NCBI GenBank assembly: GCA_043823825.1
Contig: JBDRTU010000026.1
Span: 43 to 64,042 of the forward strand
Direction of reading: 5' to 3'
Origin: Patescibacteria group bacterium
GTDB lineage: Bacteria > Patescibacteriota > Patescibacteriia > Veblenbacterales > UBA10138
DNA: 64,000 bases
The translations under genes were made by a program, and so were the position numbers. The first letter of the stretch is position 1; each line of letters starts with the position of its first letter. Below, piece after piece: positions 1 to 40,699 of this stretch. The notes under the pieces were generated by a model that saw nothing but the letters and a program-made list of their open reading frames with translations, was not told where the DNA came from and made no database searches.

Positions 1-122
1 ATAGTATCGTAGATTTTAAGCTTATCCAAATTTGTCCAAGGACCGTCCTTGGATTGGTCTTTGCGGTTTTCGCCTCGCAGAACGAGGCGACAATTTCAAG
101 TTTTTCTTTGGCGGCAAATTCA

Positions 123-623
123 TTATGAAATTTTTTTCAAGAGCAGAGGGGACAAAAGCGGTTTTAACTTTAGCTTTTCTGCTTTCGTTAAATATTTAAA
201 ACCTTTAATATGACCAAAACAATTTTTCGAACCACAGATACATTTAAAATCACTGCCCCATCTTTTCATATCCCATTCTGTGGTGAGATAGTTAAAAGTT
301 ATTTCCTCATTTTTCGAAATATCTTTTATCGCAATAAACCATCTTTTAACTATATCCAGTTTTGTATTAGGAGAGCAACTATGATTGATAAAATCCTCTG
401 GAACAAGATATTTCGTATCAATAAATTTCTTGTCGGTCATCTGCACCGCTTCAGGCGTAGAATCAGCGGCATTAACCAGATTTCCTTTCAAATAAATTAT
501 TTTTTCTCCTTTCTTGAATTTTTTATTTGCAAAGAGCGAAAGTCCCTTGCCCCACGCATAAACAACTTTCAGGTTTTTGGGAATTTTCAGGTCAAAAAGG
601 CGATTATGTTGTTTGATAAGCAT
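123..623 (-). CDS. SET-domain protein (putative protein-lysine methyltransferase)
   Basis: 166-aa ORF with the SET core motifs NHSCSPN and EITFNY, followed by a Cys-rich post-SET-like segment CICGSKNC. Confidence 0.6.
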   Translation of the reverse strand: MLIKQHNRLFDLKIPKNLKVVYAWGKGLSLFANKKFKKGEKIIYLKGNLVNAADSTPEAVQMTDKKFIDTKYLVPEDFINHSCSPNTKLDIVKRWFIAIKDISKNEEITFNYLTTEWDMKRWGSDFKCICGSKNCFGHIKGFKYLTKAEKLKLKPLLSPLLLKKIS

Positions 624-922
624 AGCGTTATAAAATTCGCAAGAGCAAGAATTAAAAAATTTTCTTCCCCCAAAATTAAAATATGGTTCGAGCCGATGTT
701 TTTCTACGGGTTCTTTTGCGGTTTTGAGCGGTGCGGCTTCGCCGCCTTTCCGAATTTTCGCGGGGGGAATTCCTCGCCGCCGCAGGCGGCGAAATGCGTT
801 CGGACTAATTCAAGAATACTGCTCCACGTAAAACTAGTTATGTCGCCACGCAGCGCCGCCATTTTTTCGCCGACATAGCTTCCATCCAAAGCAGAGTAGG
901 CCTGCCTGTCAGTCGCTCACGC

Positions 923-951: not shown

Positions 952-970
952 GTATCGCCCGCCTGCCTTA

Positions 971-1043
971 GCCACCTTAGCTCAATTGGTAGAGCAACGC
1001 ATTCGTAACGCGTAGGTTCCCGGTTCGATCCCGGGAGGTGGCT
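971..1043 (+). tRNA. tRNA-Thr (anticodon CGU)
   Basis: Manual fold gives a 7-bp acceptor stem GCCACCT/AGGTGGC, D-stem GCTC/GAGC, anticodon loop TTCGTAA with CGT at positions 34-36, T-arm CCCGG-TTCGATC-CCGGG. CCA is not encoded. Confidence 0.85.
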
Positions 1044-1102
1044 GTGGCAGGTAGGTAAACCACAGGTCAGTCTAATATCTGTCGAGCCCTTTGCCTCAGA
1101 TT

Positions 1103-2786: not shown

Positions 2787-4601
2787 TTACTGTAGCGCCT
2801 TAGTTCGGCTACTAGTGGGACGACTTAGTAAACTAAGATAAGCTTCGGTTGGTATTTGCACACTTCCTTGGGCACGCATTCGTTTCTTGCCCTTTTTTTG
2901 TTTTTCCAATAATTTGCGTTTACGCGTAACATCACCACCATAAAGTTTCGCTGTTACATCTTTTCTCATTGCCGATAATCGTTCAGCCGCAATTATCTTT
3001 CCGCCTAAAGCCGCCTGAATTTTCACTTCAAACATTTGACGCGGTATAATCTCCTTTAACTTAGTAACAATGCTACGCGCTTTGTGGTAAGCCTCACTGG
3101 TATATACAATAGTAGCTAATGATTCAACAATTTCTTCTGCCACTAAGATATCTAGCCGTTTAATCTGGCAGGGCCGGTATTCTAAAAAATCGTAATTAAG
3201 CGAGGCATAACCCTGACTAACGCTTTTTAAACGATCATAAAAATCAAAAAGAATTGAAGACAATGGTATTTGATAATGCAAAATTGCTCTTTCTGGCACG
3301 CCGCCAGGACCCAATAAATAATCAGTTGCTTTCCACTCAGCATGAGATTCTTGAGCTAGTGTCATTACTTTACCCAAATATTGATTAGGAGCCACAATAT
3401 CTAAGAGCATAATTGGTTCAGTTACTTGGCTGATAGTTGATTCATTTGGTAATTCTAATGCGCTTTTTATTATTTTCTCTACGCCACTTGATGTCTGTAC
3501 ACGATAAGCTACTGAGGGCGAGGTAATTACCAATTCTAATTCATATTCCCTCTCTAACCGCTCTTTAGTAATTTCCAAATGTAAAAGACCTAAAAAACCC
3601 ACACGAAAACCAAAACCTAAAGCTGGTGAATGCTCTGGTTCAAACGACAAACTAGCATCATTTAATTTTAATTTGTCTAAGCCCTCTCTTAACTCGGTAG
3701 CCTCATCGCCTTCCCTGGGATAAAACCCGGCAAAAACCATAGGTTTAACTTGTTGATAACCAGAAAGTGGCATATCTTGTTCGCTGGACACAAAGGTGTC
3801 ACCCACCCGAACCTTATTAATATTTTTTAAACCAGTTATCAGATAGCCAATTTGCCCAGCCACTAGAGTTGATTGGGGCTTTAATTGCGGCTGATAAATA
3901 CCGACCTCTAATACTTCTCCATTAATCTTTCCGCCCGGCAGCCAATAGCGGTCTCCTTTTTTTATTTCACCAGCTACTAATCTTATAGATGCAACTACTC
4001 CGCGCCATTCATCGTAACGCGAATCAAAAATTAAGGCCTGTAATTTATTACTGCTTGGTTTAGGCGCAGGAATGTCGCGCACCAAACGATTAAGCAACTC
4101 CGGCACAATTTTTCCGCTTTTTGCCGAAATTGAAAGAATCTCCTTATCTGATATTTTTAATAATGATGCTAATTCCTGCTTAGTTGCTTCAATATTAGCA
4201 TTAGGTAAATCAATTTTATTAATCACTGGAATAATCACTAAATTCTGACTTTGCGCTAAGTGCAAATTGGCGACTGTTTGAGCCTGAATACCCTGGGAAG
4301 CGTCTACTAGTAAAATAACGCCTTCAACGCAGGCCAATGAACGCGATACCTCATAGGAAAAATCTACATGACCAGGAGTATCAATTAAATTTAATAAATA
4401 ACCATTGTAACTCATAGTTACAGGCGCCAGTTTAATAGTAATACCCCGCTCCCGCTCTAACTCCATTTGGTCTAGTACTTGCTCCCTCATTGCACGCTGG
4501 GGAACAGTCTTAGTTAACTCTAATAAACGATCGGCTAAAGTTGACTTACCATGATCAATATGCGCAATAATGCAGAAGTTACGAATTTTTGATAGTTCCA
4601 T
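2787..4601 (-). CDS. lepA: Elongation factor 4 (LepA)
   Basis: G-domain motifs AHIDHGKST and DTPGHVDF, with LepA-specific C-terminal region. Confidence 0.95.
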   Translation of the reverse strand: MELSKIRNFCIIAHIDHGKSTLADRLLELTKTVPQRAMREQVLDQMELERERGITIKLAPVTMSYNGYLLNLIDTPGHVDFSYEVSRSLACVEGVILLVDASQGIQAQTVANLHLAQSQNLVIIPVINKIDLPNANIEATKQELASLLKISDKEILSISAKSGKIVPELLNRLVRDIPAPKPSSNKLQALIFDSRYDEWRGVVASIRLVAGEIKKGDRYWLPGGKINGEVLEVGIYQPQLKPQSTLVAGQIGYLITGLKNINKVRVGDTFVSSEQDMPLSGYQQVKPMVFAGFYPREGDEATELREGLDKLKLNDASLSFEPEHSPALGFGFRVGFLGLLHLEITKERLEREYELELVITSPSVAYRVQTSSGVEKIIKSALELPNESTISQVTEPIMLLDIVAPNQYLGKVMTLAQESHAEWKATDYLLGPGGVPERAILHYQIPLSSILFDFYDRLKSVSQGYASLNYDFLEYRPCQIKRLDILVAEEIVESLATIVYTSEAYHKARSIVTKLKEIIPRQMFEVKIQAALGGKIIAAERLSAMRKDVTAKLYGGDVTRKRKLLEKQKKGKKRMRAQGSVQIPTEAYLSLLSRPTSSRTKALQ

Positions 4602-28692: not shown

Positions 28693-29589
28693 TTAATGTC
28701 GGTCTGTAAGCTTGTACCATTCTACTAACAAAGGAGAAGCAATAAAAATAGATGAATAAGTACCTATAGCAATACCCACAATTAAAGCTAAAGCAAAATA
28801 GTGAATGGTTGAACCGCCATAAAAAAATAAAGCTGCCAACACCAGTAAAGTTGTTAAAGAAGTATTAATTGAGCGAGTTAAAGTATCGTTGATGCTTTTG
28901 TTAACAACTTGATCAAAACTACCAATTATTCCTCTAAATAAATTTTCGCGAGTTCTGTCAAACACCACGATAGTATCATGCACCGAAAAACCTAACACAG
29001 TTAGTATTGCCGAAACAAATAAACTATCAACTTCAACATTTAGATAATGCCCCAATACAGAAAAAATTCCAACTGTAATTAAAACATCATGCGCTAAAGC
29101 GGCAATAGCTGATAAACCATACTTCCACGATGCAACTGGTTTCGCCACTTTACGAAAGGCCCAAGCAATATACAAAATAATGAAAATCAAAGCAAAACCA
29201 ATTACCCACAAGGCGCGTTTGCCTAATTCGGCGCCTAAGGTTGGGCCAATAGACTCAAAGCGTTTACTTTGAATATCACCATGGTTTTCTCTGAGTAAGC
29301 TCAAAATACTTTGATGCTCATCTTCGGAAACATCGCGAAAACGAAATATCACGTCCTGCTCCCCAGTTGGCTGAATTACTACTCCACCCAGGTTAAAAGG
29401 TTCTAAGGTTTGATGTAATTGATCGTTAGTTGGTCGCTCGTTAATAAAAGCAACCTCTAGTAAAGATCCACCAGTAAAATCAATGCCAAGATTTAGACCC
29501 CAAAAAGATAAACTGACAACGCTGGCAACAATCAGTAGTGTTGAAAAAATATAGCCTATTTTACGATTAGCAATAAAATTTATTTTCAT
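28693..29589 (-). CDS. secF: Protein translocase subunit SecF
   Basis: SecF motifs LGIDFTGGSLLEV and a six-TM core. Overlaps secD by 4 nt. Confidence 0.9.
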   Translation of the reverse strand: MKINFIANRKIGYIFSTLLIVASVVSLSFWGLNLGIDFTGGSLLEVAFINERPTNDQLHQTLEPFNLGGVVIQPTGEQDVIFRFRDVSEDEHQSILSLLRENHGDIQSKRFESIGPTLGAELGKRALWVIGFALIFIILYIAWAFRKVAKPVASWKYGLSAIAALAHDVLITVGIFSVLGHYLNVEVDSLFVSAILTVLGFSVHDTIVVFDRTRENLFRGIIGSFDQVVNKSINDTLTRSINTSLTTLLVLAALFFYGGSTIHYFALALIVGIAIGTYSSIFIASPLLVEWYKLTDRH

Positions 29590-31370
29590 AGTTGCCTTGT
29601 TATATTTTTTTTACTCACACCAAACAAGAAAATCGCGCGTGAAAATTTGTTGCCAGCTACTAAACGTAAAAAAGTTCTAGTAACCGTAATGGCCGAAAAC
29701 ATGCTAATTAAAATACCAATAGATAAGGTAATAGCAAAACCCTTAATCAGAGAGGTTCCAAACCAAATTAAAATTATCGCGGTAATCAAGCTGGAAATGT
29801 TTGAATCACGAATAGAGGTCCAGGCTCGCTTAAAACCCTCTTCAATCGCTTGAGTTAAAGGCTTGCCCATGCGTAATTCCTCTTTTAATCGCTCAAAAAT
29901 AAGAATATTGGCGTCTACAGCCATTCCTACTGATAAGATAAATCCAGCAATACCAGCCAAAGTTAGGGTTACCGACCATAGTTTAAAAATAGCAAAGGTA
30001 ATCAAAGCATAGATAACTAAAGCAACTATTGATAATAAACCAGGCAGCCGGTAATAAAACAACATAAAGAGTGCAACTACAATCAAACCAACAATACCAG
30101 CGAATAAACTTTTTTCTACTGAGACCTTACCTAAAGTCGCATCTACAGTTTGTTGATTAATTAAATGTATTGGTACTGGAAGTGCCCCAGCGTTTAAACG
30201 CTGTGCCAGCTCTTTAGCCTCGACTAAGGTAAATTCACCAGTAATCACTGCTTGCCCGCCAGTAATTTCTTGTTGAACAGTAGGGACACTAATCGGCACA
30301 CCATCTAAGAAAATAGCAACCGGCTTACCGACATTACGACCAGTAATCTCAGCAAATAAATCAGATCCCTCATCATTAAAAGTTAACTGCACTTCAGGAA
30401 TTCCAGTATTGGGATCAAACTGCACTTGGGACCGTTTTAATTGTTTACCAGAAAGACCTGTGCTAATCCATGGATCAACTTGATCAAAAGCAGTACCTCT
30501 TACTAAAATATGGCTAGCCCTGAGCTCTAATACATTTTGCCCGTTTTCTTCAACCTGCCGTTCCCCTGTTTTCTTAATAATATGATAACCAAATTGAGTT
30601 TCTGATAACTCTTTACTTACTTCATCTACTGCTAGCGCTTTCACTGCTTGTTCAAATTCAGGCACCATTACACCCTCTCGAAACCAATCAAGATCACCGC
30701 CTAACGGGGCAGAACCATCTTCGGAAAATTCTTTTGCTAGAGCAGCAAAATCGGCACCCACCACCAAAGCTTTTTGCAATATCTCCTCGGCTAGCTCTTT
30801 AACATTTATTTTTTCTGCCTCATTATCTTGCAATAACTTCCCTTCGTCAGACTCTTTAAATTCTAAAATCGGCGTTTCGCCAATTAGTTGTATGGCCTGA
30901 TTAACATCTTTAATACCAGCGAGCTCCACAATTACACGCCAATTATCGCCCGACTTATTTGTTTGCACAACTGGTTCTGATACACCAAAAAAATTAATAC
31001 GCCGCTCCACCACATCTTTAACACCTTCTACCGCAGCAGCTTCTTCACCAGCCTGAATCTCACTAAGATCGGCTTGGTACACTAGGTGACTACCACCTTG
31101 TAAATCTAAGCCTAATTGCACCTGCCATTTATTCCAAAATGAAGTTCCGGGAATCCAAGCTGGTGCTTTAGGAAAATCCACCAAACCTGTAAAAATAGTA
31201 ATCACCAAAATAACAAACACTAGCCACCATGATTTTTTTCGTGGCGTCATCTTGCCAAACAATACCTTACCTAACCAGAGAAAAGGTTTGCCTAGCCAAA
31301 CTAAAAAACTGGAACCCGAGTCAGTCTCTAACGGGCGATTATTCCTTAAGTTGTCATTACTAGAATTCAT
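29586..31370 (-). CDS. secD: Protein translocase subunit SecD with an inserted parvulin-type PPIase domain
   Basis: SecD P1-base motif LGLDLQGGSHLVY, P1-head motif PVAIFLDGVPISVPTVQQEITGGQAVITG, and TM core GMAVDANILIFERLKEELRMGK. Between base and head lies GADFAALAKEFSEDGSAPLGGDLDWFREGVMVPEFEQAV...FGYHIIKK...LRASHILV, a parvulin domain. Confidence 0.9.
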   Translation of the reverse strand: MNSSNDNLRNNRPLETDSGSSFLVWLGKPFLWLGKVLFGKMTPRKKSWWLVFVILVITIFTGLVDFPKAPAWIPGTSFWNKWQVQLGLDLQGGSHLVYQADLSEIQAGEEAAAVEGVKDVVERRINFFGVSEPVVQTNKSGDNWRVIVELAGIKDVNQAIQLIGETPILEFKESDEGKLLQDNEAEKINVKELAEEILQKALVVGADFAALAKEFSEDGSAPLGGDLDWFREGVMVPEFEQAVKALAVDEVSKELSETQFGYHIIKKTGERQVEENGQNVLELRASHILVRGTAFDQVDPWISTGLSGKQLKRSQVQFDPNTGIPEVQLTFNDEGSDLFAEITGRNVGKPVAIFLDGVPISVPTVQQEITGGQAVITGEFTLVEAKELAQRLNAGALPVPIHLINQQTVDATLGKVSVEKSLFAGIVGLIVVALFMLFYYRLPGLLSIVALVIYALITFAIFKLWSVTLTLAGIAGFILSVGMAVDANILIFERLKEELRMGKPLTQAIEEGFKRAWTSIRDSNISSLITAIILIWFGTSLIKGFAITLSIGILISMFSAITVTRTFLRLVAGNKFSRAIFLFGVSKKNITRQL

Positions 31371-39276: not shown

Positions 39277-40143
39277 TTAGCCAAAAAAAGAATAACCAAT
39301 GATCTTGTACCCCAACTTTGCTGCTAAAAAATCACCAGCGGGCTGGCCAGGAATTGGTGCCAGTTCCACAATATCAGCGCCTACTATTTTTTTCTGCTTA
39401 CCAACAGAGCGTAATAAATCAATAACTTGATACCAAGTCAATCCGCCTGGTTCTGGAGTGCCAGTTCCAGGCACAATACTAGGATCAAAAGCATCAACAT
39501 CAACAGTTACATACACTTGATCACTTAAACACTTGAGTACTTTAGCAACTGATATGTTTGGTGCTTCAAAAATACGATTGATTAGCCCTGTTTTTTTAAT
39601 AAACTTAACTTCTTCTTCGCACATAGAGCGAATACCAACTGCCACGGCAGGAACCCTTAAATCATAAACTCGCCTCATAGAACAGGCGTGGCTATATTTT
39701 GAACCTTGATATTCATCGCGCAAATCAGTATGTGCATCAATTTGCAATACTGATAATTTTTTATATTTTACTTTCAGCGCCGCAACCACTCCGGGAGTGA
39801 TTGAATGTTCACCACCTAAAACTAACGGCCATTTTTTGTTTTTTAATATTTTACCAACCGCTTGCTCAAGATTATTAATTACCTGCTCTGGTTTTGACGC
39901 GCCGAGTTTTAACTCAGGTAAAGTATAAAAACCAAGCGTGGAAATATCCCGCTCTAACTCTAAATCCCACAATTCCATATTACGAGAGGCATCAATTATG
40001 GCATTGGGTCCCTTATTAGTTCCGCCACCATAAGTAGTGGTAGCCTCATATGGAATTGGCAAAACAGCGACCCGCGCTTTTTTACGGTTCACTTTATCCA
40101 AACCGCCAAAATTAAATGGCTCAATGTAAAATTTCGGCTTCAT
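39277..40143 (-). CDS. speB: Agmatinase (arginase family)
   Basis: Metal-binding motifs of the ureohydrolase family: GGEHSIT, DAHTDL and VDVDAFDP. Confidence 0.85.
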   Translation of the reverse strand: MKPKFYIEPFNFGGLDKVNRKKARVAVLPIPYEATTTYGGGTNKGPNAIIDASRNMELWDLELERDISTLGFYTLPELKLGASKPEQVINNLEQAVGKILKNKKWPLVLGGEHSITPGVVAALKVKYKKLSVLQIDAHTDLRDEYQGSKYSHACSMRRVYDLRVPAVAVGIRSMCEEEVKFIKKTGLINRIFEAPNISVAKVLKCLSDQVYVTVDVDAFDPSIVPGTGTPEPGGLTWYQVIDLLRSVGKQKKIVGADIVELAPIPGQPAGDFLAAKLGYKIIGYSFFG

Positions 40144-40150
40144 ATTCTAT

Positions 40151-40699
40151 TTATTCACCAGAAACAAACACGGCCGCGGCCAACACTGTAGTCCACAAAC
40201 CATCCTTATTACCAATGGCTGATTGAGTGGTATTGGTGGTTCTAATAATTTTTCCGCTGGCTTTATAAAATTGTTCTCTCTCATCCCAGGCAGCGTTAGG
40301 GTCAAATTCTAACCCCAAGGTAGTTGCTAACATGCTGGCTGCTAAATCCTCGGCATAGTCTCCTGCTTTCTCCTCGGTTTCACCAAATGATTTATGTTCA
40401 GATAAATAGCCATACTGATTAGCATCGGCAGGTAGTGCTAACCCTACCGAGGCTGCCATTAAACGGTTTGGTTCATTTGATCTGTTTTGGTACATCACAC
40501 AAAATACTATCTGGCCAGGATTAAGCATAGTTAACCCTTGAGTGCGATTTACAATCTTACAGCCTGGTGGATAAATTGACGAAACCCCAACCAAGTTGAA
40601 TTTTTCTATACCGGCGTCTCGAAGCGCCATCTCAAATGAGCCAAGCTCTTCCTTGTGCCGACCCACTCCTTTAGTAAAAAAAACGTACTTTGGTACCAT
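40151..40699 (-). CDS. pdaD: Pyruvoyl-dependent arginine decarboxylase
   Basis: N-terminal [31 protein letters not shown]...VSSIYPP matches the PdaD family, including the self-cleavage Ser-Ser site. Confidence 0.85.

Follow-up and report, generated by a model that had tools for sequence, protein, structure and literature searches.

A stretch of 64,000 nucleotides from a Patescibacteria group bacterium (GenBank assembly GCA_043823825.1, contig JBDRTU010000026.1, positions 43 to 64,042), hereafter referred to as the window, encodes close to its left end a small protein with a SET domain, and this raises the question of which molecule such an enzyme would methylate. SET enzymes are near-synonymous with the methylation of lysine residues in proteins, mainly histones, and recent work on BurB showed that the fold can also act on a free metabolite. 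A first-pass annotation of the window had proposed a host-interaction or protein-methylation factor. On the basis of the genes that accompany its relatives, we favor the view that the protein is a small cytoplasmic S-adenosylmethionine (SAM)-dependent SET enzyme that N-methylates an aminobutyl polyamine, e.g. homospermidine or putrescine, a view that we place close to, and just short of, an even chance. The gene and the relevant parts of its product are the following (window coordinates):

123..623, minus strand: SET/post-SET methyltransferase gene, ATG start, 166 amino acids, stop codon at 123-125 (list of open reading frames (ORFs) and sequence)
288..545, minus strand: SET core, amino acids 27-112 (Pfam envelope)
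219..242, minus strand: post-SET CxCx4C motif with C128, C130 and C135, aligned with the post-SET cysteines of BurB, MLL and SETD2
126..203, minus strand: family-specific C-terminal tail, amino acids 141-166, GFKYL..(Q/E)K.KLKP.LSP(F/L)LL.KI, two predicted helices

The encoded protein (19.2 kDa, computed isoelectric point (pI) of 9.7) matched the Pfam SET profile PF00856 over profile positions 1-104 of 105 with 53.5 bits (gathering cutoff 22.4; E = 3.6e-14); the NCBIfam search returned no model, and an exact-sequence look-up returned no record. The GxG motif, G25-K26-G27, lies just upstream of the SET core, which contains FINHSCSPN (residues 78-86; NHSC(SPN) at residues 80-86, and NHSC, residues 80-83, at nucleotides 375-386) and EEITFNY (residues 106-112; EITFNY, residues 107-112, at nucleotides 288-305). 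Mapping onto BurB and MLL identified Y112 as the catalytic Tyr and placed F110 at the Phe/Tyr-switch position. When 33 homologues were aligned, K26, F36, G39, H81, D90, I102, E107 and Y112 were invariant, as were F126, C128, C130, C135, G141, L145, P159 and L161, and N80 and C83 were at least 90% conserved. The first-pass annotation was thus borne out in its assignment of a SET domain with the NHSCSPN and EITFNY motifs, in its expectation that the catalytic Tyr and Asn (Y112 and N80) would be preserved, and in its description of a Cys-rich post-SET-like tail, the three cysteines of which, together with C83 as the expected fourth ligand, are predicted to form a Zn(Cys)4 site. An AlphaFold2 (AF2) model built from the 33-homologue alignment (mean pLDDT 92.9, pTM 0.87) displayed the SET beta-fold, with residues 2-23 as beta strands of the fold and helices at residues 147-156 and 159-165 of the C-terminal tail, a tail that is also kept in the fused relatives P0220, P0229 and P0255 described below (P and L numbers denote related proteins and related loci, respectively). 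By its sequence, the protein is a genuine SET domain joined to a post-SET domain, with no catalytic motif damaged, and since the SAM-binding and catalytic motifs and the post-SET tail are all preserved, it is very probably an active methyltransferase.

A second ORF of 222 amino acids on the plus strand (210..878) overlaps the gene and is regarded as spurious because homologues and the domain match are found in the minus frame only. The N-terminus is strongly conserved across homologues (MLIKQxNRLFxLKxPK), and the 27-residue N-terminal extension of one of them, P0018, is a translated tRNA-Ser gene (L001 7948-8040) and therefore an annotation artefact, the true start being the conserved MLIKQ.

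We gathered 96 related loci, and the neighbors of SET were surveyed by Pfam in 138 ORFs located within 2.5 kb of it in 52 non-redundant loci whose SET protein is at least 45% identical to the window copy. The commonest neighbor was a protein of the saccharopine-dehydrogenase fold (8 ORFs), and the fourth commonest was a pyruvoyl-dependent arginine decarboxylase (PvlArgDC; 3 ORFs). Polyamine genes were present within 2.5 kb of homologues of 50-70% identity in about 10 distinct contexts, in which SET is mostly located immediately downstream. All-against-all clustering of the neighbors revealed no universal SET partner, and the existence of one fixed operon partner in all loci was rejected; the signal is visible only at the level of the pathway or the Pfam family.

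In the contexts with homospermidine synthase (HSS), a full-length HSS gene (E of about 1e-98 to HSS structures) is located upstream of SET on the same strand, and in the four complete Omnitrophota loci (L018, L026, L091 and L092) the two genes are separated by 17-29 bp. Partial HSS genes were found at gaps, estimated by tblastn, of about 23 bp in L027, where HSS is cut by the contig end, about 100 bp in L037 and about 560 bp in L033, which stems from a metagenome-assembled genome (MAG) labelled 'Elusimicrobia'; the HSS copies are mutually 68-96% identical. The order in L040 is HPF, PvlArgDC, a deoxyhypusine-synthase homologue (NF002006, 444.5 versus a cutoff of 434) and SET. The contig of P0106 carries AdoMet decarboxylase (AdoMetDC), DS, agmatinase and SET in that order, the SET gene overlapping the end of the Arginase/agmatinase-family gene by 4 nt, and an agmatine deiminase gene is found 3 kb beyond SET. 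In L031, HPF and PvlArgDC are followed by a 388-amino acid relative of carboxy(nor)spermidine dehydrogenase (CASDH) and, after a 9-bp gap, by SET, and in L035 a PurD-like ATP-grasp gene and a relative of the same dehydrogenase precede SET with a 14-bp gap. The ATP-grasp-dehydrogenase pair of L016 and L024 is divergent from SET at a distance of 138-197 bp. PvlArgDC is convergent with SET in L042 and L041, and a 515-amino acid protein of the spermidine-synthase family is encoded 1.8 kb downstream of SET in L019 and L089. The ATP-grasp and/or dehydrogenase genes are located as follows:

L016, 5236-7863: ATP-grasp and/or dehydrogenase locus
L024, 1-2243: ATP-grasp and/or dehydrogenase locus
L035, 1-1271: ATP-grasp and/or dehydrogenase locus
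L031, 1716-2879: ATP-grasp and/or dehydrogenase locus

The PurD-like proteins have 464-480 amino acids and the diverged dehydrogenase relatives 388-399, the latter scoring only 75-82 bits with NF043000, and the pair may belong to a polyamine-type pathway not yet described, in organisms for which purine synthesis is not expected. As separate observations on these loci, the SET gene of L040 (7916-8440) is frameshifted by 1 nt within an A8 run, for which an assembly error is the probable cause and a pseudogene or slippage are the alternatives, and on the P0106 contig EF-P and an EpmA-like class II tRNA-synthetase paralogue are encoded 1 kb downstream of the AdoMetDC-DS-agmatinase-SET genes on the opposite strand, a proximity that may be coincidental.

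Bacterial homospermidine is made by two mutually exclusive routes with non-homologous enzymes, one proceeding from arginine decarboxylase through SpeY, a deoxyhypusine-synthase homologue, to a ureohydrolase, and the other from putrescine through HSS; a methyltransferase is not mentioned in the work that describes them (PMC13625781, 2026). Because SET ends operons of both routes, homospermidine or an aminobutyl moiety appears as their common denominator. Between the window SET protein and the operon-linked members (P0040/L016, P0050, P0052, P0081/L033, P0106, P0107/L042, L031, L035 and L040), identity amounts to 50-70%, and all the invariant columns as well as the C-terminal tail are common to both. 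At about 40% identity, SET is found fused to other domains, with the family tail kept (GF.YL..E.K..L.P.L.PYL). The partner is an Orn/DAP/Arg-type pyridoxal phosphate (PLP) decarboxylase in P0220 (lysA-like, 224 bits, below its cutoff), whose contig is too short for an informative gene context, a D-Ala-D-Ala-ligase-like ATP-grasp domain in P0229 and P0202, and a CxxCxxCC domain in P0255; these fusions point to amino-acid or amine chemistry rather than to chromatin.

The window itself contains two genes of polyamine metabolism, located 39 kb from the SET gene:

40151..40699, minus strand: pyruvoyl-dependent arginine decarboxylase (Pfam PvlArgDC 208 bits; NF009064 218.7 versus a cutoff of 207)
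39277..40143, minus strand: agmatinase-family ureohydrolase (Pfam Arginase 231 bits; TIGR01230 259.7 versus a cutoff of 174.3)

The agmatinase gene lies 8 nt downstream of the decarboxylase gene, both products score above their NCBIfam equivalog cutoffs, and the decarboxylase is 73% identical to the PvlArgDC of the SET operons L040 and L031. As judged from these genes, the organism can synthesize agmatine and putrescine, and the two enzymes, the first of which would supply agmatine, are putative pathway partners of SET. The window order MurB..PvlArgDC-agmatinase..SecA parallels that of the P0106 contig, in which SET follows agmatinase.

How a SET enzyme might act on such a substrate can be outlined as follows. 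SAM would be bound by the G25-K26-G27 loop, by N80-H81 and by the Zn(Cys)4 post-SET lid, with K26 as the counterpart of Arg42 of BurB, which contacts the amino/carboxyl end of SAM. The terminal 4-aminobutyl group of homospermidine or putrescine, an arm chemically the same as the lysine side chain, would be accepted by the narrow lysine channel, whose lining includes F110 and Y112. The nitrogen of the terminal amine would then be methylated, and the Phe at the switch position would permit the transfer of more than one methyl group, while the acidic or polar, family-specific residues E58, E76, E116, D118 and Q61 would hold the remaining ammonium groups. We infer the substrate class, the methylated position and the roles of E58 and D118.

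If this outline is right, the protein would be the first SET-fold polyamine enzyme and would make unreported N-methylated, possibly quaternary, polyamines, and in one Patescibacteria clade its gene would travel as a small serine-recombinase-linked cassette; this broader claim is quite possible but somewhat doubtful. Membership of the SET family is itself known and automatically annotated, and the tie of the family to polyamine biosynthesis appears to be undescribed; accordingly, homospermidine/polyamine-operon-linked mini-SET methyltransferases are a group that we propose here and not a described family. A literature search retrieved no SET-fold polyamine methyltransferase, no paper tying SET domains to homospermidine and no bacterial polyamine N-methyltransferase. 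The putrescine and spermidine N-methyltransferases of plants have an unrelated, spermidine-synthase-like Rossmann fold. Their reaction, a SAM-dependent N-methylation of polyamines (PMC9894180), is of the kind proposed here.

Among characterized enzymes, BurB of Burkholderia thailandensis (PDB 9l4t/9l4v), which methylates free methionine (PMC12542666), came closest in sequence, profile and fold alike, with an identity of 24-25% and a small margin over histone methyltransferases (G9a 12.6, MLL1 12.0). BurB and its homologue MSMT (methionine S-methyltransferases) are likewise stand-alone SET plus post-SET proteins of about 170 amino acids. Three features that MLL and SETD2 lack are common to the window protein and BurB: the insert is shortened by about 11 residues relative to MLL, the (A/T)(V/L)Q strand carries its Gln (Q61 here, Q75 in BurB), and the catalytic Tyr is followed by a Y-x-(S/T)-T-E loop. 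In both proteins an I.G.K.L tail also follows the CxCx4C cluster, and both are encoded within small-molecule amine or amino-acid pathways, which in our case applies to the relatives of the window gene. R42, H93 and Y124 of BurB map to K26, H81 and Y112, respectively, and R133 maps to R121, a variable position, whereas the two proteins differ at H72 (E58 here), H138 (I129), L92 of the LHSC motif (N80 of NHSC) and Met122 (switch Phe110). In the sequence-profile alignment the lysine-channel aromatics F110 and Y112 are present, and the Tyr position of the 'CY-MFRI' segment of MLL is occupied by E58 here, by His in BurB and by Tyr in P0220. BurB works with BurI, BurD and BurE towards dimethylsulfoniopropionate (DMSP) and methylates sulfur, whereas the SET family adjoins homospermidine and other polyamine genes and is predicted to methylate nitrogen. 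Given the 24-25% identity and the differing LHSC/NHSC, H72/E58 and Met122/Phe110 positions, the window protein does not qualify as an orthologue of BurB; both, however, fall within one compact prokaryotic branch, which is now known to include a small-molecule enzyme.

The assignment of a polyamine as the substrate comes entirely from gene association and analogy. A rough estimate of enrichment speaks for it: a polyamine neighbor is present at no fewer than 10 of 53 loci, with a binomial p of about 4e-5 for a background of 4% and of 0.009 for one of 8%, both backgrounds being assumed rather than measured; the count is conservative because many loci are too short to show neighbors, and shared ancestry, which makes the contexts phylogenetically non-independent, works in the opposite way. 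A number of points weigh against the assignment. The polyamine contexts come from members at 50-70% identity and not from the closest relatives (77-91%: L001, L005, L008, L010 and L096), in which SET has no adjoining polyamine gene. In the window the flanks of SET are a tRNA-Thr gene and a recombinase remnant, with no polyamine gene, and neither HSS nor SpeY, a CASDH-like protein or SpeE is encoded in its 64 kb. E58 is not universal, being Leu in the polyamine-linked P0106, and its counterpart in BurB contacts SAM and not the substrate. The Phe/Tyr switch and the catalytic Tyr fit either type of substrate, and we know of no report of N-methylated homospermidine in bacteria, a literature search for which found none. 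Finally, most characterized SET enzymes are protein-lysine methyltransferases, and the small prokaryotic Go1-SET and cpnSET methylate nucleoid proteins (PMC3980110).

These last facts lead to the alternative that the protein methylates a lysine of a nucleoid-associated, ribosomal or translation-factor protein of its own cell, as Go1-SET of Methanosarcina does on MC1-alpha and cpnSET of Chlamydia on Hc1, two single-domain prokaryotic enzymes thought to act inside the cell and compared here by description only (PMC3980110). The motifs would suit such an activity (GxG, NHSC, ELxFxY with the catalytic Tyr, Phe/Tyr switch and post-SET are all present), the NCBI name of close relatives is 'SET domain-containing protein-lysine N-methyltransferase', the closest relatives stand alone with no metabolic partner, a pI of 9.7 suits nucleic-acid-associated or acidic partners, and on the P0106 contig EF-P and the EpmA-like gene are 1 kb away; there is, moreover, a precedent in small SET proteins of prokaryotes whose targets are chromatin proteins (PMC3980110). 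Yet no candidate substrate gene, including MC1- or Hc1-like genes, recurs beside SET in the 52 loci, and the neighbors that do recur are polyamine enzymes of several unrelated folds, which a protein substrate leaves unexplained. Compared with the histone lysine methyltransferases of the SET2/NSD/ASH1L/MLL type, the protein lacks AWS, N-SET and partner-binding regions, carries Glu (E58) in place of the aromatic residue before the MFRI/YFM strand, is about 11 residues shorter, as in BurB, in the insert that walls the peptide groove on one side, and bears the additional conserved two-helix tail at its C-terminus; it is prokaryotic, with no histone context, and its relatives have a polyamine-operon context or are fused to amino-acid and amine enzymes. 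We regard a protein-lysine substrate as rather unlikely, albeit as the main alternative and one to be taken seriously, and the protein-methylation part of the first-pass annotation retains its place as a candidate and loses that of the best-supported substrate class.

A free amino acid could also be the substrate, either Met, converted to S-methylmethionine (SMM), or Lys, Orn or Arg, N-methylated and fed into a decarboxylase. BurB ranks first in all three comparisons (sequence, profile and fold), the fusion of SET with a PLP decarboxylase in P0220 resembles the logic of the bur pathway, in which BurB is followed by an SMM decarboxylase, and one SET operon (P0106 contig) includes an AdoMet decarboxylase. 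However, the identity of 24-25% is no closer than that to histone methyltransferases, side chains that contact SAM in BurB are not conserved (H72/E58, L92/N80, H138/I129), and the trio of SMM decarboxylase, aminotransferase and dehydrogenase (burI/burD/burE-type) was not found in the window or in the 52 related loci, where no such aminotransferase or dehydrogenase partner recurs. Moreover, Patescibacteria are, to our knowledge, not known as DMSP producers. Since BurB binds Met through main-chain atoms, sequence alone cannot settle this alternative, which we consider improbable. Less probable by far, to the point of being hardly credible, is a secreted effector with host proteins or histones as its methylation targets, in the manner of NUE of C. 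trachomatis, RomA/LegAS4 of Legionella or BtSET of Burkholderia. This idea, put forward in the first-pass annotation, would accord with the occurrence of a SET domain in an ultra-small bacterium that probably depends on a host, with the Sec components and the PilB ATPase encoded in the window and with the mobile-looking cassette that carries the gene, a frequent situation for effector genes. Those effectors share the SET catalytic core with the window protein but are much larger, multi-domain proteins with type III/IV secretion signals from pathogens of eukaryotes, whereas the window protein has no hydrophobic N-terminal signal and its 166 amino acids leave no space for targeting domains. Its N-terminus (MLIKQHNRLFDLKIPK...) is hydrophilic, with a maximum Kyte-Doolittle value of 0.92 in the first 35 residues (1.21 in the whole protein; 11-residue windows in both cases), so the check for a secretion signal revealed no hydrophobic segment, and this region is conserved and part of the fold. 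In addition, the family is environmental, many members are the last gene of a cytoplasmic polyamine operon, a set of 2.9 million viral contigs contained no relative, and the known hosts of Patescibacteria are prokaryotes, which have no canonical nucleosomes. The host-interaction claim is accordingly not supported.

Were N-methylation of a polyamine to be confirmed, the SET fold would be extended to polyamines through a mini-SET family tied to both known homospermidine pathways, a new class of methylated polyamines would be added in poorly understood ultra-small bacteria (Patescibacteria, Omnitrophota and Elusimicrobia), and the result would bear on the evolution of the lysine channel. The 'protein-lysine N-methyltransferase' label and the host-effector idea would then be tempting mis-annotations, corrected here; if the prediction fails, the protein is one more uncharacterized bacterial SET protein. 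The polyamine proposal is directly testable and worth the experiment because a system of co-expression in E. coli followed by liquid chromatography-mass spectrometry has already been applied to SpeY and HSS (PMC13625781).

With regard to its distribution, the homologues of the protein comprise 190 clusters at 50-91% identity, stand-alone and of about 165 amino acids. The named sources are Patescibacteria (Parcubacteria-type, Paceibacter (79%), Giovannoni-, Wolfe-, Specht- and Liptonbacteria) and, beyond this group, Omnitrophota (61-63%), a single MAG of Elusimicrobia (55%) and another labelled Woesearchaeota (74%). A SET search that scored all representatives, i.e. clusters at 50% identity, retrieved 3,895 of them with a threshold of E <= 1e-3 and 762 with one of E <= 1e-10; bacterial SET proteins are thus not rare, and their description as uncommon in the first-pass annotation was overstated. 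A review likewise reports SET genes to be widespread in free-living bacteria and archaea, and the few small prokaryotic SET proteins studied to methylate nucleoid proteins of their own cell (PMC3980110). A phage origin of the gene was rejected, given that the 2.9 million viral contigs contained no relatives. Among more distant relatives, giant proteins of 960-1479 amino acids (P0121, P0122, P0123 and P0125) contain 5-8 tandem SET copies with 34-38% identity to the window protein, and in P0121 multiple SET stretches were confirmed by Pfam. In L073-L083, from soil metagenomes and with SET relatives at 33-40% identity, a membrane protein of about 740-1050 amino acids adjoins SET in six loci, and these relatives may thus form a separate subfamily that has a partner of its own.

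The immediate surroundings of the window gene point to a history of rearrangement, and contain the following elements:

1..121, minus strand: 5'-truncated remnant of a large serine recombinase, reading EFAAKEKLEIVASFCEAKTAK... and running off the window/contig end
624..969, no strand: upstream intergenic region, GC content 50.6% (55% at 700-960; window about 38%)
624-690: leader common to the SET flanks of relatives (blastn of flanks)
727-822: element matching the inverted repeat of L010, where a 97-nt, 93% inverted repeat flanks SET
923-951: partial copy of the 5' half of the adjacent tRNA-Thr gene (83% over 29 nt)
970..1044, plus strand: tRNA-Thr(CGT), divergent from SET (ARAGORN; Rfam 64.2 bits)

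The recombinase remnant begins 2 nt past the SET stop codon on the same strand, is 62.5% identical to amino acids 29-60 of the L010 recombinase (tblastn, E = 1.5e-5) and lacks the approximately 30 N-terminal residues that hold the catalytic Ser. The SET-recombinase junction recurs in L010 and L096. In L010 (1-2300; SET 87% identical) an intact recombinase gene is located divergently upstream of SET, the 97-nt inverted repeat flanks SET, just past the SET stop codon 33 nt of the recombinase coding sequence recur in inverted orientation, and a 27-nt leader is common to both genes. In L096 (8300-10015; SET 85% identical) the leader and the downstream remnants are kept among other neighbors, namely a toxin-antitoxin pair, a GIY-YIG gene and tRNA fragments, and related recombinases are also found near SET in L002-L004, L028 and L017. 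The best SET matches are 85-91% identical, whereas the best non-self match of LepA, a core gene of the window (2787-4601), is 75% identical, and this difference suggests a horizontal spread of the SET cassette. From these comparisons, movement of the cassette between Patescibacteria lineages is likely although not proven, and the window copy looks like a rearranged one, a relocated stand-alone cassette. Base composition was not used as a sign of recent transfer: the GC content of the gene, 33.1% versus 39.1 +/- 2.3%, is low because the protein is Lys-rich, and its GC3 (0.323) equals the genome value (0.320). The L010 recombinase and inverted repeat also prompted the idea, which is not a finding, of a phase-variable inversion switch; the opposite orientation of the same SET flanks was sought and found in no contig.

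A structured RNA or riboswitch upstream of SET was rejected, since an Rfam scan of the GC-rich region detected the tRNA only, even at E <= 1, and its folding was no better than that of shuffled sequences (z = +0.9 and +1.05); a promoter and terminator scan of positions 1-1200 likewise gave nothing above shuffles. Family-wide, tRNA genes of many identities are frequent direct neighbors of SET, but the enrichment was not significant (7 of 39 SET genes versus 29 of 237 other genes of the same loci within 100 bp, p = 0.23; p = 0.06 at 400 bp), and tRNA adjacency was dropped as a family signal.

Besides SET, the window encodes PpiC/SurA-like, DivIC, MurJ and DUF4012 proteins, glycosyltransferases, RecJ, acetate kinase, SufS/SufB, SecDF, SecA, a Mur ligase, PilB, RNase P RNA and a single tRNA. 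This content (MurJ, Mur ligase, Suf, SecA/SecDF, PilB, acetate kinase and DUF4012) fits Patescibacteria and makes a reduced, possibly host-associated genome reasonable, so that the 'minimal genome' of the first-pass annotation stands in part. In the SecD/SecF-type protein (29586-31370, minus strand) a PpiC-type rotamase is inserted between the first domain of SecD and the P1 head, an unusual fusion.

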